Shown here piece by piece: positions 9,594-43,825 of a stretch of 64,000 bases of DNA. The stretch covers positions 4,557 through 68,556 of the forward strand of contig NZ_JALHQJ010000003.1 in assembly GCF_022842015.1 (NCBI RefSeq), given 5' to 3'. Every line of letters starts with the position of its first letter. Within the stretch, counting starts at the first letter, position 1. The DNA comes from Nitrosomonas sp. (GTDB taxonomy: Bacteria; Pseudomonadota; Gammaproteobacteria; Burkholderiales; Nitrosomonadaceae). The notes under the pieces are model-generated. The model was not told where the DNA came from. It saw only the letters and a program-made list of their open reading frames with translations, and did not search any database. The position numbers were made by a program, and so were the translations under genes.

Positions 9594-10640
9594 ATGTCAC
9601 TCGCCATACTGTATAGCCGCGCGCTTTCCGGTATTCAAGCACCGTTGGTGACAGTGGAAACGCACATCGCCAACGGCTTGCCCAGCTTCACCATCGTCGG
9701 CCTTCCCGATACCGAAGTTAAAGAAAGTAAAGACCGCGTCAGAGCGGCGCTGCAAAATGCACAATTCAAAATCCCTGCGCAACGCATCACCATCAATCTA
9801 GCTCCTGCGGACTTACCCAAAGAGAGCGGACGGTTTGACTTACCCATAGCATTAGGAATACTCGCCGCAACCGGGCAAATTCCCAAAGATAAACTGGACC
9901 AATATGAATGGGCTGGTGAACTGGCATTAACCGGAGAATTGCGCCCGATTCACGGCGCTCTGGCAATGACCTACAACGCATTACAATCTGGCCGCAGTTT
10001 TGTGCTGCCGGAACAAAATGCCGCTGAAGCCGCGCTAGTCAAAAAAGCCACGATCTACGCGGCCAAATCGTTACTACAAATCTGTGCGCATTTAACCGAA
10101 CGAGAAACCTTGCCCATTTTTTCAGGCGTAACCGAGGCCAGGAATGAAGACTCCACTTACCCGGATCTTGATGAAGTCAAAGGACAAACGCAAGCCAAAC
10201 GTGCGCTAGAAATTGCCGCCGCAGGTGGCCATAGTCTGCTAATGATTGGCCCGCCCGGTACCGGAAAATCCATGTTGGCGGCACGCTTCCCCGGTATTCT
10301 ACCGCCCATGACAGAGGTAGAGGCTCTCGAATCTGCAGCCATTCAATCACTTAGTTATGGTAGCTTCAATATTGAGAATTGGAAAAAACGGCCGTTCCGC
10401 TCACCGCACCATACGGCATCCGGTGTTGCTCTGGTCGGCGGCGGCAGCCACCCTCGCCCCGGTGAAATTTCACTGGCCTTGCACGGCGTGCTGTTTCTGG
10501 ACGAGCTGGCCGAATTCGACCGCAAAGTTTTGGAAGTGCTGCGCGAACCCCTGGAATCTGGAAAAATCACCATCTCACGTGCCGCACGTCAAGCAGAATT
10601 CCCGGCGCAATTTCAACTGATTGCCGCAATGAATCCGTGA
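9594..10640 (+). pseudogene. comM: ComM/YifB Mg-chelatase-like ATPase, 5' part interrupted by the integrated element
   Basis: [42 protein letters not shown]; ends abruptly at AAMNP with TGA formed at the junction; continues as CPCGYLG at 43851. Confidence 0.95.
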
Positions 10641-12175
10641 GGTTCTGTTGCCTTTTTACCACGATTTAAGGAGGAATAATTAGAAATTATTCCTCCTTGT
10701 TTTGAGCCTGAATCTGGAAGTTGAGTTGGTGGTGGAGTATAGAAAAGGTTTATTTCGATTTCTCCATCACCAATAATAATTTTCTCTACGATAGCTTCAA
10801 CAATACGACGTTTTTCTTCAAAGGGAAGCGACGGCCAGCGACTATAAAGATCACGAGCTTCTTCGATAGCTACTTCTTGGGAAAGATGAGAGATTTTAAG
10901 TATATCGATTTCGGCTTGGAGTCTAGGGATCTGCTCTTCAAACTGATCACGACGCTCAGCTAGGGGTTTATACTTTGTCCCGAAGCCATGTTTATCAATC
11001 ATGCCCGACTGATATAAGTCATAAAGCTTATCAATTTCTAAGGTAAGTTTTTCTGATTCCTTTTTCTGTAAAGTTAGAAGTTCAACCTTTTGCTTCACCG
11101 TTTCATTGGCCTGCTCAAGGTGAGTTGCAATCTCCTGATCTGATACCAGGAAACTCTTGATCTGTTCGTGAAATACGGCTTCAAGATCATCAATCGGCAT
11201 TTTGTTACGACATTGCTGGCAAGTGTATTTGGGGCTATTTGAGGGCACATACATCTTTGGGCCACAACTACAATAAGTTAGGCCGGAAAACAAATAAGTA
11301 GCGGGTTTAGCGGAGCGTTTAAGTTTATTTCTCTGCTCATCCAGAAAAAAGTTGCATTCCTGCCAGAGTTCTTCAGAAACAATTGGCTCTATTTTTGAAT
11401 ATACCCATTCCGATTCTGGTTTAAGTTGCCAAGCACCATTTCGATCTTCACTGGATGTATAGTTGGCTCGGCGAGTGCCAATAACAATTGTATCTCTGAG
11501 TAGTCTATCAATAGTTGTATCAGAGAATTTACCACCATTTCTGGTGCGGTAACCTTGTTCATTGAGAAGTCTTGCCACTAATTTCTTGCGTTTATGCTCC
11601 CGAAACAACTCGAACATGAGCTTGCGGACTTTGGCTTCCGCGTCATCAATGCAGAGTTTCTTATCCTTCCATTGATAACCATAAGGGGCTTGGCCACCAG
11701 TTGGTAAACCGGCTTTGGCGCGAATAGGCACCGCAGCAGCAACGCGCTCAGATATTTCTTCACGTTCCCATTGGGCCATGGCTGCAATCATAGTGTAAAA
11801 AAGGCGACCAGCAGGCGTAGATGTATCAATAGATTCTGCCAAGGAAATCAGGTCAGCACCATATTCCCTGAAAGTCTCAGAGAACTCCAAAAGTTCTTTG
11901 GTATTTCTAGCGAGGCGGGCCAATTTTGAGAAGATAAGGCCAGTGATATGACCTTCCCGCATGTCATTAATCATCCGCTTAGCTTCGGGTGTCTCTTTAA
12001 CCGTTTTTCCCGACACAGCGTCGAGTCGATACACCTCGACTACGTTCCAGTCTTTTGCTTCAGCATAAAGACGAGCACGGCGTTCGTGGGTCTCAGGACT
12101 TTCACCCCGCACCTGATCTTCAGTGGAAACTCGAATCCAGATTCCAACCCGCTTTGATTCGTTTTTTATGCTCAT
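10613..12175 (-). CDS. Large serine recombinase (integrase of the comM element)
   Basis: WIRVSTEDQ catalytic Ser, SKLARLARN, recombinase domain PYGY, Zn ribbon CSCG..CQQC, coiled coil; last 7 codons are comM antisense beyond the crossover. Confidence 0.95.
10638..10661. repeat. Left attachment junction: TG core + 7-bp spacer + arm GTTGCCTTTTTACCA (10647-10661)
   Basis: Arm is the exact reverse complement of 43829-43843. Confidence 0.92.
10668..10702 (+). terminator. 13-bp perfect hairpin just inside the left junction; possible terminator of comM read-through
   Basis: AAGGAGGAATAAT-TAGAA-ATTATTCCTCCTT followed by GTTTT. Confidence 0.5.
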
Positions 12176-20134: not shown

Positions 20135-21643
20135 TTATTTAATACCTAGCTCCTTCAAGTATTCAGACATCTGCTTTTCTAGTTTTTGCAGCTCCGGCTC
20201 AAGTTCAGCAAGTTCCTTAAGATTCGCACTGATATCGACTGGCGTTTCCTCTTCAAAAGTATCAACGTAACGAGTGATATTAAGATTGAAATCATTCTCT
20301 TCTATTTCGGCAAGATCAACCGAGCGAGCAAATTTTTCTACATCCTTACGCTTGGTGTACGTACCGTAAATCTTCTCAATATGCTCATCGGTCAGAACGT
20401 TTTGTGCTTTTGCTGACTTAAACTCCTTGGATGCTTCGATAAAGAAGATATCTTTTTTCTTTTCGTTCGCCCCACCTTTCTCACGTGATCGATCAATGAC
20501 AAGAATTGCCACTGGAATACCTGTTGTTTGAAAAAGCCCTGCGGGTAGGCCAATAACTGCATCAATGATGTTTTCCTTGATCAGATGTTCACGAATCTTG
20601 CCTTCGACTCCACCACGAAAGAGTACGCCATGCGGAACAATGACTGCCACACGTCCAGTTTTTGGCTTTGCTACTTCGATCATGTGCGTAATGAAGGCAA
20701 AGTCGCCTTTGTCCTTTGGTGGAACTCCTCGCCAGAAGCGATTATATGAATCTGATTCAGCATGTTCTGCACCCCACTTTTTAAGCGAGAATGGGGGATT
20801 GGCTACAACAACATCAAAACGCATCAGCTGGTCATTTTCGACGAGAAGGGGATTATTGAGCGTATCGCCCCATTCAAGACGTGCCGAATCTTTTCCGTGA
20901 AGGAACATGTTCATGCGAGCGAGTTGGAAAGTTGAACCTGTTGATTCCTGACCATAGAGGGCGTAATTCTTTGAACCTTTCTTTTCAACTTCTTCACCAG
21001 CCAAAAGAAGGAGGCCGCCCGAGCCACAAGCTGGATCACAGATACGATCACCCTCCTTAGGTTCTGCAAGCATAGCGACCAGCTGAGCCACCGAACGAAC
21101 CGTGAAGAATTCACCTGCTTTTTTACCTGCATCGGCACCAAAGCGTTCAACCATGTACATATATGAGTTGCCGATGATATCGTCGCCCACATCCGAGAGG
21201 TCAATCTTTGCAAAATCCTGAATGAGATGGCGAAGCATCTTGTTACGTTGTGCCAACTTGCCAAGTACCGACTCAGAGTTGAAATCAACACCAAATACAC
21301 CTTCAAGCTTCTCACTGTTTGCATCTTCAATACGGCGCAGCGCTTTATTTATCTCATCTCCAATGTTGTCCTCTTCAATTTTGCTGTAGATATAATCGAA
21401 AGAAGATTTTGGGGGAAGATAAAAGCGATCAAGCTTCATCTTCTCCTCGATTCGTTTTTCATCACTTCCAAAGCGCGCCTTGTATTCATTGTGACGCTTC
21501 TTATTAAGATCACTCAGGTACTTAAAGAAAAGCATGGTGAGTGCATAGTCTTTATATACACCGCCATCAACACTACTTCGTGAGGAATCAGCGGCGGCCC
21601 AAAGAATTTTATTGAGTTCTTCCTGAGTGAATTTTTTAGTCAT
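20135..21643 (-). CDS. hsdM: Type I RM methyltransferase subunit M (m6A)
   Basis: EFFTVRSV, DPACGSGG, ANPPF, PHGVLFRG, NLNITRYV. Confidence 0.95.
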   Translation of the reverse strand: MTKKFTQEELNKILWAAADSSRSSVDGGVYKDYALTMLFFKYLSDLNKKRHNEYKARFGSDEKRIEEKMKLDRFYLPPKSSFDYIYSKIEEDNIGDEINKALRRIEDANSEKLEGVFGVDFNSESVLGKLAQRNKMLRHLIQDFAKIDLSDVGDDIIGNSYMYMVERFGADAGKKAGEFFTVRSVAQLVAMLAEPKEGDRICDPACGSGGLLLLAGEEVEKKGSKNYALYGQESTGSTFQLARMNMFLHGKDSARLEWGDTLNNPLLVENDQLMRFDVVVANPPFSLKKWGAEHAESDSYNRFWRGVPPKDKGDFAFITHMIEVAKPKTGRVAVIVPHGVLFRGGVEGKIREHLIKENIIDAVIGLPAGLFQTTGIPVAILVIDRSREKGGANEKKKDIFFIEASKEFKSAKAQNVLTDEHIEKIYGTYTKRKDVEKFARSVDLAEIEENDFNLNITRYVDTFEEETPVDISANLKELAELEPELQKLEKQMSEYLKELGIK

Positions 21644-25972: not shown

Positions 25973-26191
25973 ATGAGAAAAATCAAGGAACCACCAGAAA
26001 TTGCCGATATCGTGCGGTATTTTATGCCGGATGCCAATGATGAAGAATTAAAGGAAGCCACCATTAATTTCCGGGATTATTTGGCTGTGCTTTATCGAAT
26101 ATTCCTGCGCTTGGAAGCCGAGGGGCGTTTGGATGAGATTCGTGACTTTCCTGATAATAATGATAAAGTTAATGAATATAAACCTGATTAA
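25973..26191 (+). CDS. Small helical protein coupled to second recombinase (possible directionality/regulatory factor)
   Basis: 72 aa from ATG 25973; stop 2 bp before the recombinase ATG. Confidence 0.5.
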   Translation: MRKIKEPPEIADIVRYFMPDANDEELKEATINFRDYLAVLYRIFLRLEAEGRLDEIRDFPDNNDKVNEYKPD

Positions 26192-26193
26192 GT

Positions 26194-27747
26194 ATGAATA
26201 ACGTTTATGCCTATATTCGAGTATCAACCATTAAACAGGGTACGCAAGGCTCTTCCTTAGTTGAACAGCGCTTTGCTATCGAAAATTATGCCGAGCGCCA
26301 TAACCTAACGATCAAACAATGGTTTGAGGAAAAGGAAACGGCGGCAAAACGAGGCCGCACTATTTTCACTAAAATGCTAGGGCTTTTGATTAAAGGTAGA
26401 GCGCAAGGGGTAATCATCCACAAGATTGATCGCGGGGCCAGAAACCTCAAAGACTGGGCTGATCTTGGTTCCCTGATCGACAAAGGTATCGAAGTACATT
26501 TCGCACATGAAAGCCTGGATATGCAATCCCGCGGCGGTCGCTTGGCTGCTGATATTCAAGCGGTAGTAGCCGCCGACTTTATCCGCAACCTACGGGATGA
26601 GGTTAAAAAAGGGTTTCGGGGACGATTGCGCCAAGGGCTCTATCCGTTACCTGCGCCACTAGGATATTTAGATCAAGGTCGAGGATTACCAAAACTGCCT
26701 GATCCGGTAATGGCTCCGCTGGTACAACAAGCCTTTAAATTATATGCAACCGGCGAATACAATCTCTATACCCTGGGCAGAGAAATGTATGAAGCTGGTT
26801 TGCGTAATCGTCGTGGCAACCGAGTATCCCGAAGTGGCTTATCAACTATGCTTAACAATGAATTCTATTTCGGTATTATTCATATCGTATCGACAAACGA
26901 ACGCTACCAAGGTATCCATGAACCACTAATCAAAAAATCCCTGTTTGATCAGGTTCAGGATATTTTGCACGGAAGAACCAAGAACACCGGCCTAAAACAC
27001 GAATTCCGCTACCGAAAAACTATCAAATGCTTGCATTGCCACTATAACCTCATTGCTGAACGCCAGAAGGGAAAAGTCTATTACCGTTGCCAAACAAAAG
27101 ATTGCCCACTTACGTGCATCAGAGAAGATACGATTGATCAAGAAATGCAAACCATGCTTGATAGACTTAGCCTTCCGGAAGCGGCTATTAACCGACTAGA
27201 AGCTGAATTTGCTACGCTCCAGGCTGAAAGGTATCAGCATCAAGATGAATTAATACAATCAGCCCAACTAAATCTCGCTAATATTAATGATCGAATCACT
27301 CGTCTCACCGATGCTTATATTGATCGAATGATAGACAAAGAAATGTTTGATAACAGAAACAAAAAGTTACTGCACGAGCGGATAAGCGCCAAAGATACTT
27401 TGGACGAATTACGATCAGCTATGACCGACAATGACTACAAAACTCAATCGTTTCTGAAGTTGGTAAAAGCTATATCTCTGAACAAGACACAAGCCAATGA
27501 AACTGAAAATCGTGATCTACTAAAATCAGTTACCTCGAACCTTGAGATTGATGGAAAAAGGCTTGTCTTTACTTTGCAAAAACCATTTTCTGCTATTGCT
27601 GATTGGGACGAATCTCTTTATGGTGAACCACACCGAGCCACATCTCGAACTTTTGATGTAAAAGCCAGTAAGACTTCAAAGAATTTGTTTAAGTTGATAC
27701 ATGACAAGGAACCACCTGGTGATGAGCTAGGCAAGTTAGCTGCATAA
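26194..27747 (+). CDS. Second large serine recombinase
   Basis: YAYIRVST catalytic Ser, HKIDRGARN, PAPLGY, Zn ribbon CLHC..YYRCQTKDC, coiled coil. Confidence 0.93.
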   Translation: MNNVYAYIRVSTIKQGTQGSSLVEQRFAIENYAERHNLTIKQWFEEKETAAKRGRTIFTKMLGLLIKGRAQGVIIHKIDRGARNLKDWADLGSLIDKGIEVHFAHESLDMQSRGGRLAADIQAVVAADFIRNLRDEVKKGFRGRLRQGLYPLPAPLGYLDQGRGLPKLPDPVMAPLVQQAFKLYATGEYNLYTLGREMYEAGLRNRRGNRVSRSGLSTMLNNEFYFGIIHIVSTNERYQGIHEPLIKKSLFDQVQDILHGRTKNTGLKHEFRYRKTIKCLHCHYNLIAERQKGKVYYRCQTKDCPLTCIREDTIDQEMQTMLDRLSLPEAAINRLEAEFATLQAERYQHQDELIQSAQLNLANINDRITRLTDAYIDRMIDKEMFDNRNKKLLHERISAKDTLDELRSAMTDNDYKTQSFLKLVKAISLNKTQANETENRDLLKSVTSNLEIDGKRLVFTLQKPFSAIADWDESLYGEPHRATSRTFDVKASKTSKNLFKLIHDKEPPGDELGKLAA

Positions 27748-27830
27748 GTTATATTTATGATCTAACTCAATGTTCTCAAAAACATGTTTTGAATAAAAGG
27801 AGGGAGATATTGCAAAATTATGTTATCTAA
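27619..27830 (+). repeat. Copy A of a ~200-bp diverged direct repeat (recombinase-2 3' tail and downstream)
   Basis: Begins TATGGTGA; shares an identical 18-mer CGAGCCACATCTCGAACT (27634-27651) with 29098-29115; similarity continues past the stop; end coordinate approximate. Confidence 0.85.
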
Positions 27831-27987
27831 ACAGTAACTTGCAATTTACAAAACTTGTGGCATAGTGTAGTACTGTTCTTTAATAAAATTTAGTAGATGA
27901 GACGAACAAGCAGAGTGGCAAATATTGATATTCTGCTTGTTCGTCTCATTTTGAGCGGACATAACTTCAACTAATTGGAGGCACACG

Positions 27988-28812
27988 ATGTCAAACATCG
28001 CACACCTTGATACCGCTACTCTTGATACTGTCGCCAAGTTTTTCCGCATCATGCGGAAAGCTGGTGCTGATTTCACGGGTCCTATGCAAGATCTTAACAA
28101 AAGGAAAAACCTAGTAGCCTATTTGGCGCTTGAATGTCCTGAGATCACTGCCGAAGGCACAACAATCGTCACGATTATACCCAAAGGAGCCGAACTAGCA
28201 CGACGGATCTTAGGTGACGATTTCATCGACATCACCGAAGTTTCCTCGGCGTACAACTTTTCGTATTCTGATGAACAGCTAGTGAACTTTTCAAACACCT
28301 TGCCTGACTTCGATACTCTAATATGGCTACGTACTAATGGATACATGCTAGTCGCTGGGCCAAATGTAGATATCAATATGGTTGATATCTACAAAATCAA
28401 CCCCTCGCTGTATTACAGCAAGTTTCCCACTTTCGATTACGGGGAGGTTTGGCAAGAAAATGACAAGGAAAAGTTCCCGCGGTTGGACATGGTCAAGGCA
28501 GGGAAATGGCTTATGCTTCGCAAAGGTGATGTTCCGAATTCTCGGGCTAGTCCATGGTCTAATCAGAGTAAACTAGTCACCAGCCCCGAATACATTCCCA
28601 ATATCGCCAAAGTCATATACGGTGTGACTGTGTATCATAAAATTCGTAGTCATTACCTTCTATCAAACTTTTATGTCCGCACATCTTCATCTAATATGTA
28701 TGGCAATTCTGTAGGTGTCGGTTTTTTTGGTAGACATGGTATATGTATAGATGACAAATCTTTGGAAGATCGAGGCTTTGGCAACTGTGGCGTATCGTCG
28801 ATTCGAGACTGA
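27988..28812 (+). CDS. Hypothetical protein with DGR-variable-region-like C-terminus
   Basis: 274-aa ORF between repeat copies; C-terminus YVRTSS..GNSVGVGFF..GICI..DRGFGNCGVSSIR. Confidence 0.5.
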   Translation: MSNIAHLDTATLDTVAKFFRIMRKAGADFTGPMQDLNKRKNLVAYLALECPEITAEGTTIVTIIPKGAELARRILGDDFIDITEVSSAYNFSYSDEQLVNFSNTLPDFDTLIWLRTNGYMLVAGPNVDINMVDIYKINPSLYYSKFPTFDYGEVWQENDKEKFPRLDMVKAGKWLMLRKGDVPNSRASPWSNQSKLVTSPEYIPNIAKVIYGVTVYHKIRSHYLLSNFYVRTSSSNMYGNSVGVGFFGRHGICIDDKSLEDRGFGNCGVSSIRD

Positions 28813-28881
28813 ACTTTAAGATTATCAAGATTCTTAGATAGTTAAATAGACTAATTTGATCTTCATAAACAAAAAAAACAC

Positions 28882-28916
28882 AGACCCCCAAGTTGAAAAA
28901 CTTGAGGGTCTTTCTT
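28882..28916 (+). terminator. Intrinsic terminator after the 274-aa gene
   Basis: AGACCC-C-CAAGTT-GAAA-AACTTG-A-GGGTCT then TTCTT. Confidence 0.6.
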
Positions 28917-29016
28917 GATTAAGAATACCTAGTAAAGGGCGTTTAATCAGTTCGATTCCCACCAAGGTCTAATCAAAAGATATTCAATTTGGCAAATTTT
29001 CTTCCCAGAGCGTAAA

Positions 29017-29053
29017 ACACAAAATCGCTCTTAAAATAAGAGCGATTTTGTGT
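29017..29053. repeat. Perfect 17-bp inverted repeat
   Basis: ACACAAAATCGCTCTTA-AAA-TAAGAGCGATTTTGTGT. Confidence 0.85.
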
Positions 29054-29082
29054 CAAGGTAGGGAAACTTACCAAATGAAAGA

Positions 29083-29290
29083 TATGGTGAGCCATGTCGA
29101 GCCACATCTCGAACTAAAAACACTAAACCAGGTAAAACATCTAAGAATTTGTTTAGATTGATACATGACAAGAAACCGCCTAGTGATACTTCTAGCAAGC
29201 AGGTCGCTTAGTCTCCTTTATAAATCTTTGTTTATGTTCTCAAGAGTGAAACTTGAACAAAAGGAGAGAAATGTTACCAACAATATTGTT
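29083..29290 (+). pseudogene. Copy B: orphan 3' tail of a paralogous serine recombinase
   Basis: Translates YGEPCRATSRTKNTKPGKTSKNLFRLIHDKKPPSDTSSKQVA* versus YGEPHRATSRTFDVKASKTSKNLFKLIHDKEPPGDELGKLAA* in 26194-27747; end approximate. Confidence 0.85.
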
Positions 29291-29481
29291 TTTGTAGCAG
29301 AAGGTTTATCATTACTAAATGACAACAATTATTATATTGATGGATGCCCAGCTTTTGTGGGAGAAATAATACTACAAAATCAACTAATTGATGTAATATG
29401 GCACAATACAATTGCTCTATGAGTCTTCTATTATTGATTAGGAGCTCTGTGGTTGCTTTATTAATTTTTTAAATTTCACCT

Positions 29482-29940
29482 ATGTTTGAATTAGATCACA
29501 AGCATTTCATGCAGCTTGCGTTTGAACAAGCCAAAAAATCGTACGATGAAGGAGGATTACCAATTGGCGCAGTAATGATAGAAGATAATCTTGTCATTGG
29601 CTCGGGGCATAATCGGCGGGTACAAAATGGAGACCCAACTGCTCATGGTGAGATGGATTGTTTTCGACAAGTTGGTAGACGTAAAAACTACCAAGATGTC
29701 ACTCTCTACACCACATTAAGTCCATGTATGATGTGTGCTGGCACAGTGGTGCAATTCGGAATTCCACGGGTTATCATCGGTGAGAATAAGTCATTTGCCG
29801 GTAATATTGATTTTCTCAAAGAACATGGCGTCGAAGTCATTCTTCTGAACGATCCGCAATGTGAGTCCTTGATGCAAAAGTTTATTATTGAAAAACCAGA
29901 ATTGTGGAATGAGGATATTGCTGGGAGAGAACGTGTTTAA
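29482..29940 (+). CDS. Zn-dependent nucleoside/cytosine deaminase
   Basis: GGLPIGAV, AHGEMDC (HxE), LSPCMMC (PCxxC), ELWNEDI. Confidence 0.9.
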   Translation: MFELDHKHFMQLAFEQAKKSYDEGGLPIGAVMIEDNLVIGSGHNRRVQNGDPTAHGEMDCFRQVGRRKNYQDVTLYTTLSPCMMCAGTVVQFGIPRVIIGENKSFAGNIDFLKEHGVEVILLNDPQCESLMQKFIIEKPELWNEDIAGRERV

Positions 29941-30433
29941 TCATAAGCTGTTTCGTTTTAATATCCAAGATCAACTTCCCGAGACAAAAGAAGAGTTAGA
30001 TGAATATCTCAAAAACCTCAAAAACCTATTAAGCGATCAACAGCAAGAACCGATTTTTGCACACTTATATGAAAATCTATCAATTTTAGATGCAAAAGCT
30101 GCGTCATTGTTGCAGTTCAACTCAATCTTACTTGCAGTATTGGCCATATTTCTAACAGCCGACGCCATCTCAAGTACTGCTTTTTTTATTACCATAGCCG
30201 GTATATTCCTTATACTAATTTCATCATATTTGTTACTGGATGTTGTTTGGGTACATTGGTCAGCAGCGGATCATATGCACATCAGAGAAGATCATGAGCT
30301 TAAATTGCTTGAAGTGCGTAGAAGTCGCACGAGACTTTATCGTATTGCTTGGAATTTCTCTAGGGGAAGCTTATTGATGGTCGCAGCAGTTGTTATTTTT
30401 GAGCTTTTTCTAAAGATTACAGAGAAAGTTTAG
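29933..30433 (+). CDS. Small multi-pass membrane protein, possibly Pycsar-effector-like
   Basis: GTG overlaps the deaminase stop; ILDAKAASLLQFNSILLAV followed by about 3 hydrophobic helices. Confidence 0.55.
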   Translation: MFNHKLFRFNIQDQLPETKEELDEYLKNLKNLLSDQQQEPIFAHLYENLSILDAKAASLLQFNSILLAVLAIFLTADAISSTAFFITIAGIFLILISSYLLLDVVWVHWSAADHMHIREDHELKLLEVRRSRTRLYRIAWNFSRGSLLMVAAVVIFELFLKITEKV

Positions 30434-30589
30434 GAAAATTACCATCCAATGAATCGTCATACTTCAATAAAACTTCAAAGAATTCATTGAATTAAATCTC
30501 TGGGCACTACTAATATTTTCCATAACATAAGGCTAGAAGAGTTGCTTGTAGGTAGATCAAGTTCAAGTTTTACTTCACAATTAGCCTTT

Positions 30590-33169
30590 CTATAAGGTAG
30601 AGAACTTCCTAATTTTTTTTCTAATTTCTTCAAATCGCATTATTTCATCATTAAGATTCTGTGGTTCAGGATTCTTGTAAGCATATTTATCGCTATGGGT
30701 ATGTCCTTCCATATAGCGACAACATTGTGCAAAACTATCTTGTAGTTCTTGAATTAAAATCTGGTCAAAGTTCACTTCTGATAAGGAATCAATACTAACT
30801 CTATCCTCAAATGGTCTTACTGTATTATTAAAGAGATCATAGATAACTAGTACCTCATAAGAAGTTCTTAATGCAGAAAAGCCTTGGGCTAAATACCTGT
30901 ATCTTTCTTCCGGAGGACAATCGTCTTTATTGCTATTCCTGAAGTAATTCTTTGCAGGCTCAGCATTTCTGTATTTCTTCTGATATATTGGAGCGTTTCC
31001 GAACCAAATAAAACCAGGCTTATTGTTTCTACTTTCAATCCAATGACATAATACTTCGTCTTCTTTTGATTTAGATAAAAGATTAGATACGAAAACCAAA
31101 TCGTGTGAGAAGACAATTACTTGCTTGGCTGATGATTCGGCAATTAATCTCCTTGCTATTTCAGCTTTTCTTGCATCATCTAAAGAAGTAACAGGGTCGT
31201 CAAATATGATTCCTCTGTTCACTTCTGATAATTGCATTTCTGCTATAAAGTCAGCAATAGCAATAACTTTCTGCTCTCCTTCACTCAATACAGCATTCGG
31301 GTTATTACCTCGTAATTTTAGCTGTCTATACGATCTACCTGCTGTGCCTGTATGATTTATCTCGATACCAAAATTTCCATTTAGTTTTTGACACTCTTCA
31401 TTAAAAGTTTCGACATATTTCTGATTGAAATACTTATCTGATAGAGCTTTCTCAGTATCGGTTATTTTTCTTTTGGCAAAATTTGCACTACCTGCTTTTT
31501 TTATCCATATTTGATTATCAACGAAAGCCTCAAATTTTGAAAAATGAGTATTAAATTTCTCTTTGTGTTCTAAGAATGTTTTTTCCTTCAGCAATTTTTC
31601 CAATTTATTGCTTTGTTCATCATCTTTGAACAATTTAATTGCATCGCCAAGCGCTGTTTCAATCGTTGTGTGCTCTTCAACGCTAATTTTTACTTCAATT
31701 CGATTATTTGCTGTTTTATTTTGAATATCGGAAATGATGCTTTCAGATAGCGTTTTTTGTTCAGTGAGCCTTTGTTTTAATGAGTTCAAATGCTGGGGAT
31801 ATTTTTCAGTAAGCCAAGCTGAGAGTGTATTTTCTATAGGAAACAACTCAAAAACTAATTTCTCAAAAGCTTGCCTGATTTTATCAAGCTCTTCCTGTGC
31901 TTTTTTTGCATTCTCTTCCGCGACACTTTTTATAAAAGTCCAATAACTTGCAATCAATTTCTCAGCATCTTCTGAAAGTGGCTGATGGCAAAATAAACAG
32001 TTATCTCCGTTTTCAGGATAAATAGCTTTTTCAAATTTTTGATTTATTGCGAATGCTTCGGCGCTTACAATAAAATCTTTCCACTCTTCAGTGCCAATAC
32101 CTTCAATTTTATCCGTTTTAAAATTTTCAATTCCCTCGGCTTTAGCAACATCTTCTTTTTTCTTGCAATCGTTTATTACTTTTTTTACCTTTTCAAGTGT
32201 TTCGGTTGAGAAATATCGGTTAAGTGTTTCAAGTGCCTTTTTATTTTCTCCTAATAATTTTTTAATGTTCTCAAGATCTTTTATTTCCTTATCCTTACTT
32301 CTTGAAGCCAGAAGCAGTTCGTCATATTGCTTCTGAATTTCCGCTTTTTTGGTTTTATCTTCTTCTGAAAAAGGAGTGTATTTTTTCAAATCTTCAATTT
32401 TGGTTGAGGCAGAAAGTTTCTCAATTGCTGTTTTAATTTCAGATTCGCCATCAAATAAAAATAAAAGACTATCTAATGTATGCCCAATCCTCTTATCACT
32501 AATATTAGCATTTAGTTTTTGTTCAATTTTTGTAATAGCATCGGTGTATTCAGCAAAAAAACTTAATCCTGCTGGCCGGAACTCAAATTCATTTTTGTTC
32601 TCAAGTTGCTTTAATAATCCCTTTCCGTCAAAAACAGAGAACTGTTCAAACTCTACTGAATTCTCATTTGCAGGATATTCCAATGGAATGTCTGAATTCT
32701 GAGAAATGAAAGTAAATTTTGCTTTAATGGATTTGTGACCGCTATTGATATGAACATTGGGCAAAATTTCTTCTGGAGCTTTTGAGTAAAATACTTTTTT
32801 GAGCAATCTAACATAACCTGATTTTCCGGAACCGTTTGCACCGTAGATGATAGTCAGATTAGGGCTGAATTCAATTGTTTGGTTTTCAGTTAAAGCGTTT
32901 ACACCTTCAACACTTTCAAGTCTTGAAAGTAATAAATCAAGTTTATGATTACCTGAATTTCCGGCATTGTAATTGATTGTAATTACAGGCTTCTCGGTCT
33001 CATTCTTTAGCTTTAATTCTTCAAGGAGACAGGAATACGAAGTATCGATGTCATTTAGAGAAATGGCATTCCCTGACAAAATCTTCTGAGCGATGTATTT
33101 TGCCCAATACGGGAGATTATTGGCAAAATTATTTATTTCAGATTCAAGTGTTAAGTGCTTAGAAGTCAT
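30590..33169 (-). CDS. RloC-like ABC-ATPase with zinc hook and HEPN-like C-terminus
   Basis: GANGSGKS, CLFC hook in a long coiled coil, LSEGEQK, FDDPVTSLD, RYMEGH (Rx4H). Confidence 0.7.
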   Translation of the reverse strand: MTSKHLTLESEINNFANNLPYWAKYIAQKILSGNAISLNDIDTSYSCLLEELKLKNETEKPVITINYNAGNSGNHKLDLLLSRLESVEGVNALTENQTIEFSPNLTIIYGANGSGKSGYVRLLKKVFYSKAPEEILPNVHINSGHKSIKAKFTFISQNSDIPLEYPANENSVEFEQFSVFDGKGLLKQLENKNEFEFRPAGLSFFAEYTDAITKIEQKLNANISDKRIGHTLDSLLFLFDGESEIKTAIEKLSASTKIEDLKKYTPFSEEDKTKKAEIQKQYDELLLASRSKDKEIKDLENIKKLLGENKKALETLNRYFSTETLEKVKKVINDCKKKEDVAKAEGIENFKTDKIEGIGTEEWKDFIVSAEAFAINQKFEKAIYPENGDNCLFCHQPLSEDAEKLIASYWTFIKSVAEENAKKAQEELDKIRQAFEKLVFELFPIENTLSAWLTEKYPQHLNSLKQRLTEQKTLSESIISDIQNKTANNRIEVKISVEEHTTIETALGDAIKLFKDDEQSNKLEKLLKEKTFLEHKEKFNTHFSKFEAFVDNQIWIKKAGSANFAKRKITDTEKALSDKYFNQKYVETFNEECQKLNGNFGIEINHTGTAGRSYRQLKLRGNNPNAVLSEGEQKVIAIADFIAEMQLSEVNRGIIFDDPVTSLDDARKAEIARRLIAESSAKQVIVFSHDLVFVSNLLSKSKEDEVLCHWIESRNNKPGFIWFGNAPIYQKKYRNAEPAKNYFRNSNKDDCPPEERYRYLAQGFSALRTSYEVLVIYDLFNNTVRPFEDRVSIDSLSEVNFDQILIQELQDSFAQCCRYMEGHTHSDKYAYKNPEPQNLNDEIMRFEEIRKKIRKFSTL

Positions 33170-33304: not shown

Positions 33305-33871
33305 ATGTCAATGCAAATGCGCTCAAACGCTGAGCTTCTCGCCATGCTGGTGGGGAAAAGAAAAGCCGATAAGCTATTTCGCAACACACTGGTTTCACTA
33401 TTTTTTGCCAGGGAAGGAAGCAATAAATACTCGAAGGAACTGGCCGCTGCCAAGGAGCTAGTTAAACGCTCTCTAAATGAAGAGATACAGCAATTGGATG
33501 CTCTCAGTTCACCGGCAAAAGTGGCTGATTACCTGAAGTTAACGCTCATGGGATATGAACATGAAGTTTTTATCACCTTATTCCTTGATGCACAAAACCG
33601 CCTCATTGCTACCGAAGAATTGTTTCGTGGCACTTTGACCAATACAGCCGTCTATCCACGGGAAATCGTCAAGCGGGCGCTTTTGCTCAACGCGGGCAAT
33701 GTTATCTTTGCGCACAATCATCCTTCCGGATTGGCGACACCAAGTCATGCCGACAAAGTGCTGACAGAGACTTTAAAACAAGCATTAGCGCTCATAGACG
33801 TGAAAGTGCTCGATCATTTAGTGATCGGAGACGCCGCTGCGGTTAGTTTCGCCGAAAGTGGATGGTTATAA
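33305..33871 (+). CDS. radC: RadC family JAB-domain protein
   Basis: EHEVF, VYPREIVK, FAHNHPSG..PSHAD, VLDHLVIG. Confidence 0.9.
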   Translation: MSMQMRSNAELLAMLVGKRKADKLFRNTLVSLFFAREGSNKYSKELAAAKELVKRSLNEEIQQLDALSSPAKVADYLKLTLMGYEHEVFITLFLDAQNRLIATEELFRGTLTNTAVYPREIVKRALLLNAGNVIFAHNHPSGLATPSHADKVLTETLKQALALIDVKVLDHLVIGDAAAVSFAESGWL

Positions 33872-33874
33872 ATT

Positions 33875-33908
33875 AAACCCTGCCATAAACAGCAGGGTTT
33901 TTATTTTT
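33875..33908 (+). terminator. Intrinsic terminator after radC
   Basis: AAACCCTGC-8nt-GCAGGGTTT followed by a T-rich run. Confidence 0.7.
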
Positions 33909-33992
33909 TGTGAAAAACAATGGCTATAGAAATTACCAGAGCAGTAATTCACCACATCGTGCCATTTTTTTAGCGCAATCTATTCTAGCTAG

Positions 33993-35183
33993 GTGCATTA
34001 CCAACCCATTTCATTTTTTGGAAGAACCAACGCTCGAAATTCTCACCGCCACTTTGGTATCAAAAATAATGACCGTTTTTCCCATATCTATGTAATTGGC
34101 CGTACCGGGGCTGGAAAAACTACCTTATTGGAAACTCTGGCTACACAGGATATACAAAATGGCAAGGGCTTATGCGTCATTGATCCACATGGCGATCTGG
34201 CTGAAAGATTAGTATTAAGTGTTCCAGAACAGAGGACTAATGACCTTTGTTATGTGAACGTACCCGATATACAACAACCTTATGGCTATAACCCACTAAG
34301 AAAGGTACACCCTTCCCGTATACCCTTGGCCGTGTCGGGACTGATGGAAGCTTTCAAAAAACTTTGGGACGAGGCCTGGGGCGTTCGCATGGAGCATATA
34401 CTTAGAAATACGCTCTATGCCTTGATTGAAGCCGGTGACGCCAAGCTACCCGATATTCTTGGTATGATTGCTGATAAAAACTATCGCGCAACCATCATTC
34501 CGAAAGTTAAAAATGAGCAAGTGCGTAGTTTCTGGCTGGAAGAATTCACTGCCTATAATCCCCGCTATCGGCAGGAAATGATCGCTCCTATTCAAAATAA
34601 AGTCGGTGCATTTCTGGCCGATCCCAAGCTAAAACGCATCTTTACCGCAGCCCCCGTTAACCTCCAATTTCGATCAATTATGGATGAAGGGAAGATTCTG
34701 ATTGTGAATCTAGCCAAAGGTCGTCTTGGTGAGGATAGTGCCTCACTGTTTGGTGCGCTACTCGTAACCACTCTTGGTTTAGCGGCTATGAGTCGTGGTG
34801 ATATGCCGGAGTCAGAGCGCCGCGATTTTTTCATATACATCGATGAATTCCAGAGTTTCACTACGCTTTCCATCGCTAATATGGTTTCGGAGCTGAGAAA
34901 GTATCGTATTGGCCTTGTTTTGGCGCACCAACACTTCTATCAATTGGAACCCGATGTTAGGCATGCGGTATTAGCCAATGCCGGTACACTGATAGCGTTT
35001 CGGGTGGGGCCAGAAGATGCACCGCTGATTGCTCGGGAATTTGCACCAGTTTTCAACGTCACCGATCTTATCAGTCTACCAAACCACCATATCTACCTAA
35101 AACTCATGATCGACGGCGCTCCTAGCCAGCCATTTAGTGCCACCACTTTACATCCCCATGATCTTAATCATTTAAGTTATTAA
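33993..35183 (+). CDS. VirD4/TrwB/HerA-like P-loop ATPase
   Basis: HIYVIGRTGAGKT, VIDPHGDL, YIDEFQSF, ELRKYRIGLVLAHQ. Confidence 0.8.
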   Translation: MHYQPISFFGRTNARNSHRHFGIKNNDRFSHIYVIGRTGAGKTTLLETLATQDIQNGKGLCVIDPHGDLAERLVLSVPEQRTNDLCYVNVPDIQQPYGYNPLRKVHPSRIPLAVSGLMEAFKKLWDEAWGVRMEHILRNTLYALIEAGDAKLPDILGMIADKNYRATIIPKVKNEQVRSFWLEEFTAYNPRYRQEMIAPIQNKVGAFLADPKLKRIFTAAPVNLQFRSIMDEGKILIVNLAKGRLGEDSASLFGALLVTTLGLAAMSRGDMPESERRDFFIYIDEFQSFTTLSIANMVSELRKYRIGLVLAHQHFYQLEPDVRHAVLANAGTLIAFRVGPEDAPLIAREFAPVFNVTDLISLPNHHIYLKLMIDGAPSQPFSATTLHPHDLNHLSY

Positions 35184-35257
35184 CCCTTCTATCCGCTAAT
35201 ACAAAACGTAGATACTTTAGTTACTTATCTTATTCATGAGAAAAGAGGAGAAATCAT

Positions 35258-35638
35258 ATGAAGTTATTGCTACGTCGTAATCAAAAAACCGGCATGCTCG
35301 GAAAAATCATCTTTATCATCGCCGTCCGCGCGGAACTATCCGATGAAGAAAAAGCCGATATCAAAAAATACAAACTTGGCGATACTATGCTCTATGAACG
35401 CTCCAAAATCGCTGATCCCGGTAGCGGACTTCTTGGCATGGCTTCACGCTTAGCTTTCAGAATGATTAATCTGTCAATCTCAGTTAATGATTTAGAGAAG
35501 GGAAAAGAGGTTGAGTGCAAAGATGTGGTGGAAATGCTGGCCGTTGAAGAACAAATAAAAGAAGCCGCCCATACCTTTCGGACAGTCCTTGGAGCCGCTA
35601 GTACTTTTGGTGGTGAGGAAATTATCGAGATCAATTAA
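35258..35638 (+). CDS. Hypothetical protein
   Basis: 126 aa, SD-like GAGGAG upstream, abuts the 926-aa gene. Confidence 0.65.
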   Translation: MKLLLRRNQKTGMLGKIIFIIAVRAELSDEEKADIKKYKLGDTMLYERSKIADPGSGLLGMASRLAFRMINLSISVNDLEKGKEVECKDVVEMLAVEEQIKEAAHTFRTVLGAASTFGGEEIIEIN

Positions 35639-38419
35639 GTGTCTCAAAACTGGCTTTCCTGGCTCAAACCTTCGCCTAAACAATTAGAACAGGCGGAGAT
35701 GCTGACTATGTTGCAGCAGTTACAGCAGCATAGTCAGTGGGCATCGCCTCTCAATACCGAAGACAAAGTTAACAACTTTATAATTGATGTCATTGCTGAT
35801 GCTTGCAGTGAGCATGGCACTCTACCCGGCATACCTTTAGGCGAAGCGCTATTCTACGCCATCAAAACTCTTTTAAAAGATGATTCAATTATCGGAGAGT
35901 TACCAACTGAATCAGAAATTTGCCATCTAAGTATTGAAGAAGGTGTGCGTCTCCGAGCCGCTTTTAGACGCTATGAGCGGTTTCTAGCAACCCCAGATCG
36001 ATTATTAGCTATCTGGCAGGCAAAGCTCATATGGCTTTTTAGAGGTCTGCTTGGATATTTTCCCGAGTCCGCGTTTATTGATGTTAATGAAAATGGACAA
36101 GGTGCTGATGATTCCGTTGTTTTCCCCAAAGCTCAGGCTTTTGATCTTTGCGACAACCTTCCGGAAGTCATTCAGCGCATCATCGCGACTTTATTTGATG
36201 AGGATGTTGTTGAGGCACAGCTTTTTGCGCCAGAGCGAGACATATTTAACCGGAATTTGTTAAAAGCATCAGGCTATTCACCTGATGCTACCTTTAACCA
36301 TGATCCCAAAATAATATTACCCACAGAAAGCAAACTTAGAGAACCTGCGGCGTTGGTCGATGCGTATTTAGGCGGTACGCCATTTCAGGAACTGTTATAC
36401 AGCCCATTACCGTTTGCGATTCCGTTTCCGGCCCGATTTGAACACACGCACATTGTTGGCGGGACTGGGCACGGCAAAACCCAGCTTATGCAATTCTTGA
36501 TTCATCACGATATTGTGCGCTCACAAGATGATGGACGCTCAATTGTGGTGATTGATAGCCAAGGTGATTTGATCAATACCATTTCAAAGCTTGGTTATTT
36601 TAGCAATCCGGCACTAGCCGAACGTTTCGTACTCGTTGATCCAAACGATATTGAGCATCCGGTATGTCTAAACATGTTTGATTTCAATCGGGACAGACTA
36701 AGCGGTTATGCACCGGTTGACCGGGAAAAGATTTTAAATGCCACCATTGAGCTTTATGAGTATTTCTTTGGTGCTCTTCTTGGCGCTGAACTTACCCAAC
36801 GCCAAGGACTAATATTCCGCTACTTGGCCCGGTTATTGATTGAGATTCCCGATGCCAATATTCATACACTCAGGGAATTGATGGAAGATGGGGCAAAATT
36901 CCGGCCCTATATGGAGAAACTAACCGGTACGGCCAGAAGTTTCTTTGTCACGCAGTTTTTTGATAAAAAATTTGGTGAGACCAAAAAGCAAATTTTGACC
37001 CGTCTTTGGGGTGTGCTATCGAATTCATCCTTGGAGCGGATGTTTTCCCATACTCGCAATCGGATAGACATCTTTGAGCTCCTAAATCAAGGCAAGATTA
37101 TTCTTATTAATACCGCCAAGGACTTGTTAGGGCAAGACGGTGCAGCCATTTTCGGGAGATTCTTTATTGCCCTGATCGCTCAAGCCTCGATTCAACGGGC
37201 CGCCATGCCACCGCATACCCGTCGATCAGCTTTTGTTTATATTGACGAAGCGCAAGACTATTTTGATGACAATATTTCGCATCTGCTTAATCAAGCTAGA
37301 AAGTATCGAGTAGGACTGATCTTTGCTCATCAAAACATGGATCAATTAACTGCCAATCTTCGTTCCAGTGTACTGGCTTCCACCACCATTAAATTTGCCG
37401 GTGGTTTAAGTGCCAAGGATGCCGGAGTTCTTGATTCTGAATTCCGTACCGATGCCGATTTCTTGCTAGGTATGAAGAAAGGGAAAAATCATACCGAGTT
37501 TGCTTGTTATGTGAAGAACTACACTAATAAAGCGCTGACAGTATCGATTCCACTCGGGTTTGTGGAAGATAAACCCAAGATCACAGCCTTTCAGTATGAA
37601 GAGCTTTTGGATCGGAATCGTGAGTTATACAGTGAACCGCCACTATTGCCTGAAGAAATAGCGTTTCCTGAGCAGAGCAAACCAGAGTATAAAGGGCTAC
37701 AACCAGCCAAACCCAAAGAAACAACACCAGAAAAGCCATCACAGCCAGTGGCTACACCAGCTGAGCAAGAAAAATCCGCTTCACATGTACAACAGTCAAT
37801 TATCACGCCTATTGAATCGGAAGTACCTACTACACCAGAAGCCACCGCTAAAACAACCGCTGCGCCTAAAAAAGCGAAACCCATACCACCAGAGGATATT
37901 CCTCAAGCTGGCCGTGGTGGGCGACAACATAAGTATCTGCAACATTTAATCAAGCAATTGGCCGAAGAACGCGGATTCCGTGCCACTATTGAAGAAACCA
38001 TATTGGATGGCGCTGGACGGGTCGATGTATCGCTTATTCGTGAGAAAATACGAGTAGCTTGCCAAGTTTCGGTCACCACTACCAAAGATTGGGAACTTGG
38101 TGGTATCGAGAAGTGTTTTGCGGCTGGCTATACCGAGGTAGTGCTGGTATCGGGGACGGAACGGCATATCAAGAAATTATCCAAGTTTGTGGAAGAAAAC
38201 CTTGATCCCAAGGATCAGGGACGTGTCCGGTATATAATTCCTGATGGCGTTATTGAGTTTCTTGATAGTCTTGGGAAATTTACTCCGACTGAACAAGTGG
38301 TGCGTGGATACAAAGTACGCACGGTGCAACAGGCTACTGATTCAGAAGATGCGGCTTCGAGGCGGAAAGCAATTTCGGAGGTTATTGCTAGGTCGTTGCA
38401 GAAGGAGAGGGAGAAATAA
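35639..38419 (+). CDS. Large VirD4/TraD-like ATPase with Pro-rich linker and nuclease-like C-terminal domain
   Basis: HTHIVGGTGHGKT, VIDSQGDL, YIDEAQDY, QARKYRVGL; C-terminal GRVDVSL..VACQVSV. Confidence 0.75.
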   Translation: MSQNWLSWLKPSPKQLEQAEMLTMLQQLQQHSQWASPLNTEDKVNNFIIDVIADACSEHGTLPGIPLGEALFYAIKTLLKDDSIIGELPTESEICHLSIEEGVRLRAAFRRYERFLATPDRLLAIWQAKLIWLFRGLLGYFPESAFIDVNENGQGADDSVVFPKAQAFDLCDNLPEVIQRIIATLFDEDVVEAQLFAPERDIFNRNLLKASGYSPDATFNHDPKIILPTESKLREPAALVDAYLGGTPFQELLYSPLPFAIPFPARFEHTHIVGGTGHGKTQLMQFLIHHDIVRSQDDGRSIVVIDSQGDLINTISKLGYFSNPALAERFVLVDPNDIEHPVCLNMFDFNRDRLSGYAPVDREKILNATIELYEYFFGALLGAELTQRQGLIFRYLARLLIEIPDANIHTLRELMEDGAKFRPYMEKLTGTARSFFVTQFFDKKFGETKKQILTRLWGVLSNSSLERMFSHTRNRIDIFELLNQGKIILINTAKDLLGQDGAAIFGRFFIALIAQASIQRAAMPPHTRRSAFVYIDEAQDYFDDNISHLLNQARKYRVGLIFAHQNMDQLTANLRSSVLASTTIKFAGGLSAKDAGVLDSEFRTDADFLLGMKKGKNHTEFACYVKNYTNKALTVSIPLGFVEDKPKITAFQYEELLDRNRELYSEPPLLPEEIAFPEQSKPEYKGLQPAKPKETTPEKPSQPVATPAEQEKSASHVQQSIITPIESEVPTTPEATAKTTAAPKKAKPIPPEDIPQAGRGGRQHKYLQHLIKQLAEERGFRATIEETILDGAGRVDVSLIREKIRVACQVSVTTTKDWELGGIEKCFAAGYTEVVLVSGTERHIKKLSKFVEENLDPKDQGRVRYIIPDGVIEFLDSLGKFTPTEQVVRGYKVRTVQQATDSEDAASRRKAISEVIARSLQKEREK

Positions 38420-43357: not shown

Positions 43358-43825
43358 TTATTTACCATGTCGCTCATTCCACTGCTTTCTCATAGTTTTA
43401 TCAATAATATCCTCATTCATACCAAGAAATGAAGCAACGAGTCGCCGGTGATCATTCTTCATGATCGTTCCACCGCCTTCCCAATCCTTTACAGTACAAG
43501 GATCAACGCCTAAATTCCTAGCAACTACCCGCTGGCTCCACCCTAATTCTCGGCGCTTGGCAAACAACAATTCCGCAATTGATTTGGGATTCAAGTTAAC
43601 AGGATCATAACCAAGAAATTTGATCAGGATCGGCGTTTGGCAAAATTTTGGTTCTGAATGCCCATTTTCCCAGTTACCAACGGTGAAGTGAGTAACATTA
43701 AATAGCTCTGCTACCTCTGTTTGTTTCATATTAAGAAAAAGCCTTCGTTTAAGAATGTGTTCACCAATTGCTTTTGGTTCAAATTCATAAGGCTTAGGAA
43801 TTAATGACTTAAGTGAGGTGCGCAC
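43358..43825 (-). CDS. Tandem XRE-type HTH protein; predicted C-terminal module of the excised-state integrase
   Basis: Two HTH units (LKRRLFLNMKQTEVA..VGNWENG; KRRELGWSQRVVA..VKDWEGG); GTG start with no SD-like sequence; frame is open back to the TG core and closed by TAG at 43862-43864. Confidence 0.85.
   Translation of the reverse strand: MRTSLKSLIPKPYEFEPKAIGEHILKRRLFLNMKQTEVAELFNVTHFTVGNWENGHSEPKFCQTPILIKFLGYDPVNLNPKSIAELLFAKRRELGWSQRVVARNLGVDPCTVKDWEGGGTIMKNDHRRLVASFLGMNEDIIDKTMRKQWNERHGK

Follow-up and report, generated by a model that had tools for sequence, protein, structure and literature searches.

The stretch of DNA analysed here, referred to as the window, comprises 64,000 nucleotides of a Nitrosomonas sp. 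genome (assembly GCF_022842015.1, contig NZ_JALHQJ010000003.1, positions 4,557 to 68,556 of the forward strand) and carries a large serine recombinase gene, rec2, whose 3' end is repeated downstream with a cargo gene between the two copies. We consider it quite probable that this 3' end contains the recombinase's own attachment site (attP), and that small recombinase-less cassettes moved in trans have been stacked there. The grounds are comparative, as it is by comparison with related loci that the recombination point, its junctions with tRNA-Glu genes, the exchange of tails, the recurrent cassette arms, the modularity of the cassettes and a circular permutation of the whole element come to light.

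The rec2 gene and its repeated tail

The features on which the argument turns are the following.

26194 to 27747, plus strand: rec2, large serine recombinase of 517 amino acids (Pfam Resolvase and Recombinase, weak zinc ribbon).
27625 to 27830, plus strand: tail A, the putative P' arm, with 40 codons past the crossover, a stop codon and a conserved 3' untranslated stretch of about 80 bp.
29089 to 29294, plus strand: tail B, a putative orphan P' arm, with 40 open codons, a stop codon at 29209 to 29211 and the conserved untranslated stretch; it runs into the rest of the element.

Rec2 has a resolvase-type catalytic domain in residues 4 to 148 (PF00239, Resolvase, E 2e-23), with the catalytic-serine motif YIRVST (as YAYIRVSTIKQ) at the N-terminus, and matches PF07508 (Recombinase, E 4.6e-13); its zinc ribbon (PF13408) scored 21.5 bits, under the family cut-off of 25.3. 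The PDB matches were serine-recombinase catalytic domains, that of the TP901-1 integrase among them, and the members of its 90%-identity cluster are 496, 517 and 518 amino acids long.

An earlier reading of the window (the first-pass annotation) had noticed that the recombinase tail recurs in diverged form 1,464 bp downstream and that the similarity starts sharply, and both observations hold. The last 42 codons of rec2 plus about 80 bp, at 27619 to about 27830, are repeated in register at 29083 to about 29294; gapless blocks of copies A and B are 83-88% identical, and the whole of some 210 bp is about 78-80% identical. The similarity has its abrupt start at TATGGTGA, upstream of which the sequences are unrelated. 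Copy B is the sole other match to the tail in the 3.06-Mb genome (BLAST E 6e-18) and keeps the 40-codon frame open past the crossover (EPCRATSRT...KQVA, then a stop codon). A weak third copy at 30465 to 30491 was discarded as a chance resemblance, its local alignment score being 30 against a shuffled maximum of 32.

That recombination within the recombinase's 3' end swaps its tail, as had been proposed, is borne out by relatives in which nearly identical recombinase bodies bear tails only 71-74% alike. The last 600 bp of the body are 99-100% identical between loci L030 and L036 (tail 74%), 96-97% between L028 and L040 (tail 72%), and 94%/89% between the window and L044 (tail 71%).

Most tails are also followed by a conserved motif, ATGTTCTCAA and TTGAATAAAAGGAGGGAAATATTGCC separated by 10-14 nucleotides, found at 27760 to 27830 and 29225 to 29294 in the window and behind most tails in L025-L057; it is not obviously a promoter, the ribosome-binding site of a conserved open reading frame (ORF) or a known RNA.

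The probable crossover site and its tRNA-Glu target

27595 to 27655 (approximate limits), plus strand: site A, attP-type, within the 3' end of rec2, with core TGGTGA at 27621 to 27626.
About 29060 to 29120, plus strand: site B, with core TGGTGA at 29085 to 29090.

The nature of site A is indicated by three relatives, L054 (a 189-kb metagenome contig with the 496-amino-acid Rec variant), L009 (a Saccharibacteria contig of 594 kb) and L012 (Doudnabacteria, more distantly related), in which ARAGORN and the sequences themselves place the recombinase ORF in continuity with an antisense tRNA-Glu gene exactly at TGGTGA, the junction reading ...CGCTTTATGGTGA followed directly by CCCCACGGAGAATCGAACTCC. 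Read on the other strand, TGGTGA is TCACCA, with which the tRNA-Glu genes of bacteria of the candidate phyla radiation (CPR) end. Directly to its right the acceptor strand GACCCCA is intact, and ARAGORN calls the tRNA-Glu at these junctions as intact, its terminal TCACCA being contributed by the element. Because the recombinase gene joins antisense tRNA-Glu at TGGTGA in these relatives, site A is best viewed as an attP and the tail as its P' arm. That the site would be the attP of a tRNA-Glu-integrating element had escaped the first-pass annotation.

Since attP (TGGTGAACC...) and the tRNA side (TGGTGACCC...) have only TGGTGA(N)CC in common, the crossover should fall inside TGGTGA or immediately to its left. 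Dyad-symmetry scans place the best axis at offset 3-4 of GTGA, and the crossover dinucleotide is therefore probably GA (27625-27626). Sites A and B have identical TGGTGA cores. The symmetry reaches 19-21 of 36 matches in the best class-3 and class-4 arms (see below) and is weak at the recombinase-attached site. The imperfect symmetry formerly described around copy B does exist, with seven of eight positions matching between AGATATGG and CCACATCT at 29080 to 29109; its left half is unconserved in other sites, and its axis, at 29094/95, is not where recombination appears to occur. The central dinucleotides deduced from it, AC (27633) versus AT (29094/95), have to be abandoned: the tRNA-Glu junctions put the crossover at or left of the end of TGGTGA, and these centres lie to the right of it by about 7-8 bp in site A and 5 bp in site B.

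One consequence is that the two states of the protein differ at the C-terminus, the integrated Rec ending in ...YGDPTENRTPICRMKTCCPNH and a stop codon and the attP-intact Rec in the 40-codon tail. The last two residues are -AA in about 60% of tails (LAA, KAA, RAA, QAA), which resembles ssrA-type ClpXP tags, and the integrated, tRNA-antisense tail ends in -PNH.

Orphan tails, arms and cassettes in related elements

Tails separated from any recombinase body, here called orphan tails, are present in direct arrays at about 15 other loci. Each starts at one and the same nucleotide, GTGA(A/G)CC (27623 in the window), and is preceded by a conserved non-coding left arm, of which there are only a few kinds. 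The left flanks do not encode recombinase, have stops in the tail frame and belong to few classes common to unrelated contigs. The class-2 arm was considered as decayed recombinase coding sequence and rejected, its in-frame translation containing stops and showing no resemblance. A pattern scan of metagenomes returned 17 further contigs, eight of them with 2-3 tails, always in the same orientation within a contig; a plasmid collection yielded a single, weak recombinase match. The module hsdM-ArdC-RuvC-like-p444-small ORF-Rec2 recurs in G073, a genome of the same genus with a recombinase and two orphan tails, in Nitrotoga, and in a gammaproteobacterial and a Saccharibacteria metagenome-assembled genome (MAG); the loci that share it diverge downstream of the recombinase and hold extra orphan tails. 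The homologs thus bear out the earlier suggestion that small cargo units are stacked downstream of the recombinase and bounded by copies of its tail.

The left arm of copy B belongs to one of the recurrent classes.

28948 to 29086, plus strand: class-3 cassette left arm, non-coding, about 140-150 nucleotides, with a T-arm-like stretch at 28948 to 28975, a hairpin at 29017 to 29053, and CAAGGTAGGGAAACTTACC.

It aligns over about 150 nucleotides with seven other arms (L029, L030, L032, L034, L038, L043 and L016). The class-3 hairpin is a bidirectional terminator whose stem covaries (GCTCTT/AAGAGC, GCCCTT/AAGGGC, GTCCTT/AAGGAC). The class-3 arms of L029, L030, L034, L038, L043 and L016, together with class-4 arms, contain AA(A)GTT(C/T)GAG or AAAAGTTG, an inverted copy of the CTCGAACTT of the tail, and the two copies sit symmetrically about the boundary between GTGA and the following A. 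The 5' part of the arm, AGTTCGATTCCCACCAAGGTCTAAT (28948 to 28975), resembles the T-arm plus the 3' strand of the acceptor of a plus-strand tRNA. All class-3 arms conserve this stretch, possibly as the remnant of another tRNA-targeting integration system.

In the CPR genomes from which L016 and L066 come, arms of classes 3 and 1 lie immediately next to tRNA-Glu; further orphan tails are found upstream, and no recombinase body was found within the stretches fetched. An integrated cassette would be expected to have a right-hand end of just this kind. The modularity of the cassettes is illustrated by a ParDE unit of 1.36-1.38 kb in L030, L038 and L043, whose copies have 87-93% identity between one site and the next and are embedded in unrelated flanks, and which comes directly after the recombinase in L030 and after other cassettes in L038 and L043. 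The 40-codon frame is kept in 20 of the 21 orphan tails, and dN/dS is 0.34 for orphan tails (0.26 outside the site) and 0.28 for attached ones. Open frames and low dN/dS argue that orphan tails have been evolving as coding sequence, which would be expected of tails that cycle onto a recombinase.

The cargo of these cassettes in relatives consists mostly of defence genes. Gabija-like pairs of an OLD-ATPase and a UvrD protein occur in cassettes of L010, L025, L034 and L041, a SIR2 plus HerA cassette in L034 and a cassette with a Thoeris-type (ThsB) TIR protein in L031; ParDE pairs account for seven instances, and the remaining cargo includes a TerB_N protein, a dCTP-deaminase-like protein, a DEAD-box helicase and PDC-S06. 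Many cassette genes are antisense.

The same layout was seen in L014, a Patiriisocius MAG (Bacteroidota), where a Rec2 relative at 41% identity has a different tail of its own (7424), repeated nearly identically at 10953, with 3.5 kb and two cargo genes between the copies. The design based on the recombinase's own tail would therefore extend past the Rec2 lineage.

The cassette in the window and its cargo

27897 to 27949, plus strand: terminator-like inverted repeat with 25-bp arms, then TTTT, separating tail A from the cargo gene.
27988 to 28812, plus strand: cargo gene of cassette 1, 274 amino acids, the sole ORF between the copies.
28882 to 28911, strand not assigned: terminator-like hairpin with a T-run, 3' of the cargo gene.
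29482 to 29940: deaminase (Pfam), terminal cargo behind tail B.
29888 to 30433: deaminase partner of 174-181 amino acids, terminal cargo behind tail B.
30590 to 33169, minus strand: PDC-S06 candidate defence ATPase (PADLOC, E 1e-124), terminal cargo behind tail B.

The single cargo gene and the terminator formerly placed between the copies are both there. The 274-amino-acid protein has no Pfam or PADLOC match and has 42 homologs, the named ones belonging to CPR bacteria (Minisyncoccia, Parcubacteria). The idea that this gene itself travels on cassettes found no support: the three CPR homologs inspected are single genes of the chromosome, surrounded by housekeeping genes and without tails in the vicinity. 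The PDC-S06 ATPase is an 859-amino-acid AAA_13 protein matched over its full length, and L057 has a family member at the same place, between the last tail and RadC. An Rfam scan of 27400 to 29500 gave no score near any gathering threshold, and ARAGORN found no tRNA in the window.

An element with two integrases

The repeats are part of a lower-GC island that interrupts a comM-like gene (9594 to 10640, truncated); the housekeeping proteins encoded around it cluster with those of Nitrosomonas from the N. oligotropha group. Three further features belong to the island.

10613 to 12175, minus strand: int1, a second large serine recombinase (Pfam), at the junction with the truncated comM.
25973 to 26191, plus strand: small conserved ORF of 72 amino acids immediately 5' of rec2 (length as called in identical contigs).
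33305 to 38419, plus strand: backbone after the variable region, RadC and then two coupling-protein-like ATPases (Pfam).

On the 5' side of the repeats the island contains a type I restriction-modification system into which an OLD-like ATPase is inserted, together with ArdC, a RuvC-like gene, a 444-amino-acid gene (p444), the small ORF and Rec2; its 3' side holds the deaminase and its small partner, PDC-S06, RadC, both coupling-protein-like ATPases, a cluster of radical-SAM type and a gene with tandem helix-turn-helix (HTH) domains. The small ORF, a candidate directionality or regulatory factor without a Pfam match, is called 5' of the recombinase in L045-L048, L054, L055 and L057 and has homologs at that place in L009, L010, L011 and L025. 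The variable region runs from the recombinase, or from the first tail of the contig, to RadC in the window, L034, L041 and L057, and a coupling-protein-like gene of the window's 396-amino-acid type lies 3' of RadC in the window, L034 and L057.

The relationship between the two integrases became apparent from a Saccharibacteria MAG, G190, in which both coupling-protein-like ATPases are syntenic with those of the window; no match to RadC was found there. Its gene order is tail...VirD4a-p126-VirD4b...HTH-Int1...ChaN-like...ArdC...Rec joined to tRNA-Glu, and that of the window, Int1...Rec2 joined to its tail...VirD4...HTH, is circularly permuted relative to it. In G190 an Int1 homolog (81% identical) is fused in frame with the tandem-HTH gene in a single ORF of 682 amino acids (L068-L070), and in the window the HTH gene stands apart from int1, at 43358 to 43825. 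The fused ORF represents the uncut attP of Int1. Together with the permuted order, this shows a single element family integrated through Rec2 at tRNA-Glu in CPR bacteria and through Int1 at comM in Nitrosomonas. The attP of Rec2 is uncut in the window because the element sits in comM through Int1. Both enzymes, therefore, have their attP inside their own 3' ends and change C-terminus on integration. It is here, and not in the EPH/EPC codon pointed out by the first-pass annotation, a coincidence at the residue level, that the parallel with Int1 lies.

The HsdM proteins of the window (20135 to 21643) and of the Nitrotoga locus L010 (2 to 1438) are 96% identical, with 60-75% identity for ArdC, p444 and Rec2. 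With hsdM far closer than its neighbours, the element seems to be a mosaic whose restriction-modification module was recently exchanged.

How cassettes may be stacked, and the alternatives

In the model that we favour, Rec2 would be the integrase of a mobile element with attP in the 3' end of its own gene and the tRNA-Glu of CPR bacteria as chromosomal target, everything 3' of the crossover (40 codons and about 80 bp) corresponding to the P' arm. On integration Rec2 would lose its tail and read about 20 codons of tRNA antisense in its place. Cassettes devoid of a recombinase would bring their own site, composed of a non-coding left arm, TGGTGA or GTGA, and their own copy of the 40-codon tail, and moved in trans they would use the same tRNA-Glu target. 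Cassettes and main element would integrate one after another at tRNA-Glu or at the hybrid sites formed there, and excision via the outermost sites would give rise to a circle in which the recombinase body comes first, then the cassettes and then the former P' arm, exactly as in the window. An alternative route would be direct capture at the recombinase-proximal site. The window would then hold one cassette of 1,464 bp, formed by tail A, the 274-amino-acid gene of apparent CPR origin and the class-3 arm, with tail B as the displaced, earlier P' arm. Accretion of this kind is visible in G190, where the tRNA-integrated Rec is preceded, at a distance of about 32-35 kb, by a recombinase fragment with its tail and by a class-1 site. 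We infer that Rec2 itself catalyses the stacking, that this proceeds by accretion at hybrid sites or by direct capture, and that the system may be active in Nitrosomonas.

Several observations weigh against this model. To our knowledge, canonical large serine recombinases recombine attP with attB only, and either stacking route would need reactions beyond that pair, on hybrid or attP-like sites. The class-3 arm of the window does not have the inverted motif AAAGTTCGAG of the best class-3 arms; it reads AAACTTACC, like that of L032, and because this marks a degenerate subclass site B may be a poor substrate for recombination. The single tRNA-Glu of the Nitrosomonas host ends in GACGCCA and not in GTCACCA, so that the natural target of Rec2 would be absent from this genome. 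All 12 of the 12 contigs with the identical cargo protein have one and the same arrangement. The system is rare and patchy, with the tail present in only one of 401 sampled Patescibacteria genomes and four of 190 Nitrosomonadaceae genomes. Lastly, some related arrays contain truncated recombinase pieces (recB' in L010, the fragment in G190), so that deletion has a part in shaping these arrays as well.

The alternative that survives best, to which we give somewhat less than an even chance, is that the array is a fossil, built by site-specific recombination in earlier hosts and inert in this Nitrosomonas, with Rec2 or site B no longer functional, a fixed cassette and only Int1 and comM still of relevance. 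The invariant arrangement, the host tRNA-Glu without target core and the degenerate arm of site B are all in its favour, and so is the resemblance of only about 80% between tails A and B, which means that the event was not recent. Against it, rec2 is intact, with its 517 codons and its domains present (the zinc ribbon as a weak match), the frame of tail B is kept, and both cores read TGGTGA, with compatible crossover bases.

Decayed tandem islands, put forward as an alternative by the first-pass annotation itself, would make copy B the 3' stump of a deleted paralogous recombinase or full element, with the cargo there by chance. Such decay is real in some related arrays: L010 has recA, recB' (amino acids 1-314), a tail and recC, the fragment in G190 (amino acids 398-508) is accompanied by a tail, and L042 and L011 hold fragments of a second recombinase. 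For copy B the explanation is improbable, given that the sequence to its left does not encode recombinase and has stops in the tail frame, that its arm of about 150 nucleotides is common to seven other sites and that a class-3 arm adjoins tRNA-Glu in L016; moreover, the orphan tails, more than 25 of them and independent of one another, start at one nucleotide, which random deletion would not bring about. Even less credible is the idea that the tails are simply some 210 bp of portable homology (70-90% identical over about 200 bp in many co-occurring elements) through which RecA-type exchange shuffles cargo without any site-specific reaction, because all blocks share a single starting nucleotide and have unrelated sequence to the left of it, the tRNA-Glu junction and attP have only TGGTGA plus CC in common, some arms have dyad symmetry about the boundary and the gene carrying the site encodes a serine recombinase; as an additional process, homologous exchange within tails may occur.

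Returning to the model of site-specific stacking at the Rec2 attP, a bolder version of it can be formulated, which we regard as tentative and on balance unlikely. Rec2 and its site would be a working cassette-capture platform, the serine-recombinase counterpart of the integron, gathering and reshuffling cassettes with defence and toxin-antitoxin genes; the element, with its two integrases, would move between CPR bacteria (at tRNA-Glu) and Proteobacteria (at comM). As each event would rewrite the C-terminus of Rec2, the stability or activity of the enzyme would report whether the site is free, occupied or integrated.

One and the same element family is found opened at either of two attachment sites in hosts of very different phyla, CPR bacteria and nitrifying Betaproteobacteria. 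This is relevant to gene exchange with the CPR in both directions, and cassette arms could be used as bait for new defence genes. The system also offers testable parts, namely a site of about 50 bp, arms of several classes, tRNA-Glu as target and a small candidate cofactor; with serine integrases in wide use as tools of genome engineering, these may be of practical value.

Comparison with known systems

A literature search of partial coverage brought up no earlier account of cassette arrays docked in the 3' end of a serine recombinase's own gene, although one may exist. Among the closest likenesses is that with the composite islands of the staphylococcal cassette chromosome (SCC/SCCmec), which are known to be mobilized by Ccr large serine recombinases and to include ccr-less pseudo-SCC units, some with anti-phage defences (PMC11470126). 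As is generally known of SCC elements, a large serine recombinase targets the 3' end of a conserved gene, which the element rebuilds, and units in direct order are parted by repeats of the target end, with recombinase-less units moved in trans and defence genes as cargo. In the Rec2 family, similarly, 3'-end integration leaves tRNA-Glu intact and direct arrays include recombinase-less units. The target, however, is not rlmH. The primary one would be tRNA-Glu and the alternative the 3' end of the recombinase gene itself; what recurs as the gene end is the recombinase's 40-codon tail; the site lies inside the recombinase gene, so that each event would alter the C-terminus of the enzyme. The hosts differ as well, being CPR bacteria and Proteobacteria. 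The likeness described here is one of organization.

Site-specific accretion is also a feature of the ICESt1/ICESt3 family at fda in Streptococcus thermophilus, in which integrative and conjugative elements (ICEs) and cis-mobilizable elements (CIMEs) accumulate through a tyrosine integrase and identical core repeats. As in the Rec2 arrays, non-autonomous elements bounded by att sites lie in tandem with an autonomous one and can leave with it as a composite; by an exit of this kind arrays would end up inside the excised form. Rec2 differs in being a serine recombinase with the site in its own gene, and its cassettes are much smaller (0.7-5.5 kb) and have dedicated conserved arms.

The location of an attP within coding sequence has precedents. 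The integrase gene of SSV1 is split by attP, and in the mycobacteriophages BPs and Brujita the C-terminus of the repressor reportedly depends on integration, with attP in the gene, as Broussard et al. are said to have described in 2013. The likeness is in the different C-termini of the integrated and excised states. These systems rely on tyrosine integrases, though, and none of them is known to stack cassettes. By analogy, a degron role for the tail of Rec2 may be proposed as a hypothesis.

Lastly, defence-carrying chromosomal integrons, with IntI, attI and attC, are known (10.1101/2024.07.02.601686). The arrays described here share with them a recombinase-proximal docking site, direct arrays of mostly 1-2-gene cassettes that each end in a conserved arm, toxin-antitoxin cassettes, defence cargo and arrays without recombinase. 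They differ in that the adjacent enzyme is a serine recombinase and not an IntI-type tyrosine recombinase, and that several unrelated arm classes are joined to a double-strand-type dyad site in place of folded single-strand attC sites; a common Pc promoter is not apparent, since a terminator-like hairpin separates rec2 from the cargo gene and many cassette genes face the other way, and the docking site is in the 3' end of the gene, not upstream. Of the integron-like array suggested by the first-pass annotation, the stacking of small cassettes by a serine recombinase stands as a probable reading, with an accretion closer to that of SCC and CIME elements than to that of integrons. If the comparative picture is true, it would constitute a second, mechanistically different way of building integron-like arrays of small defence and toxin-antitoxin cassettes.

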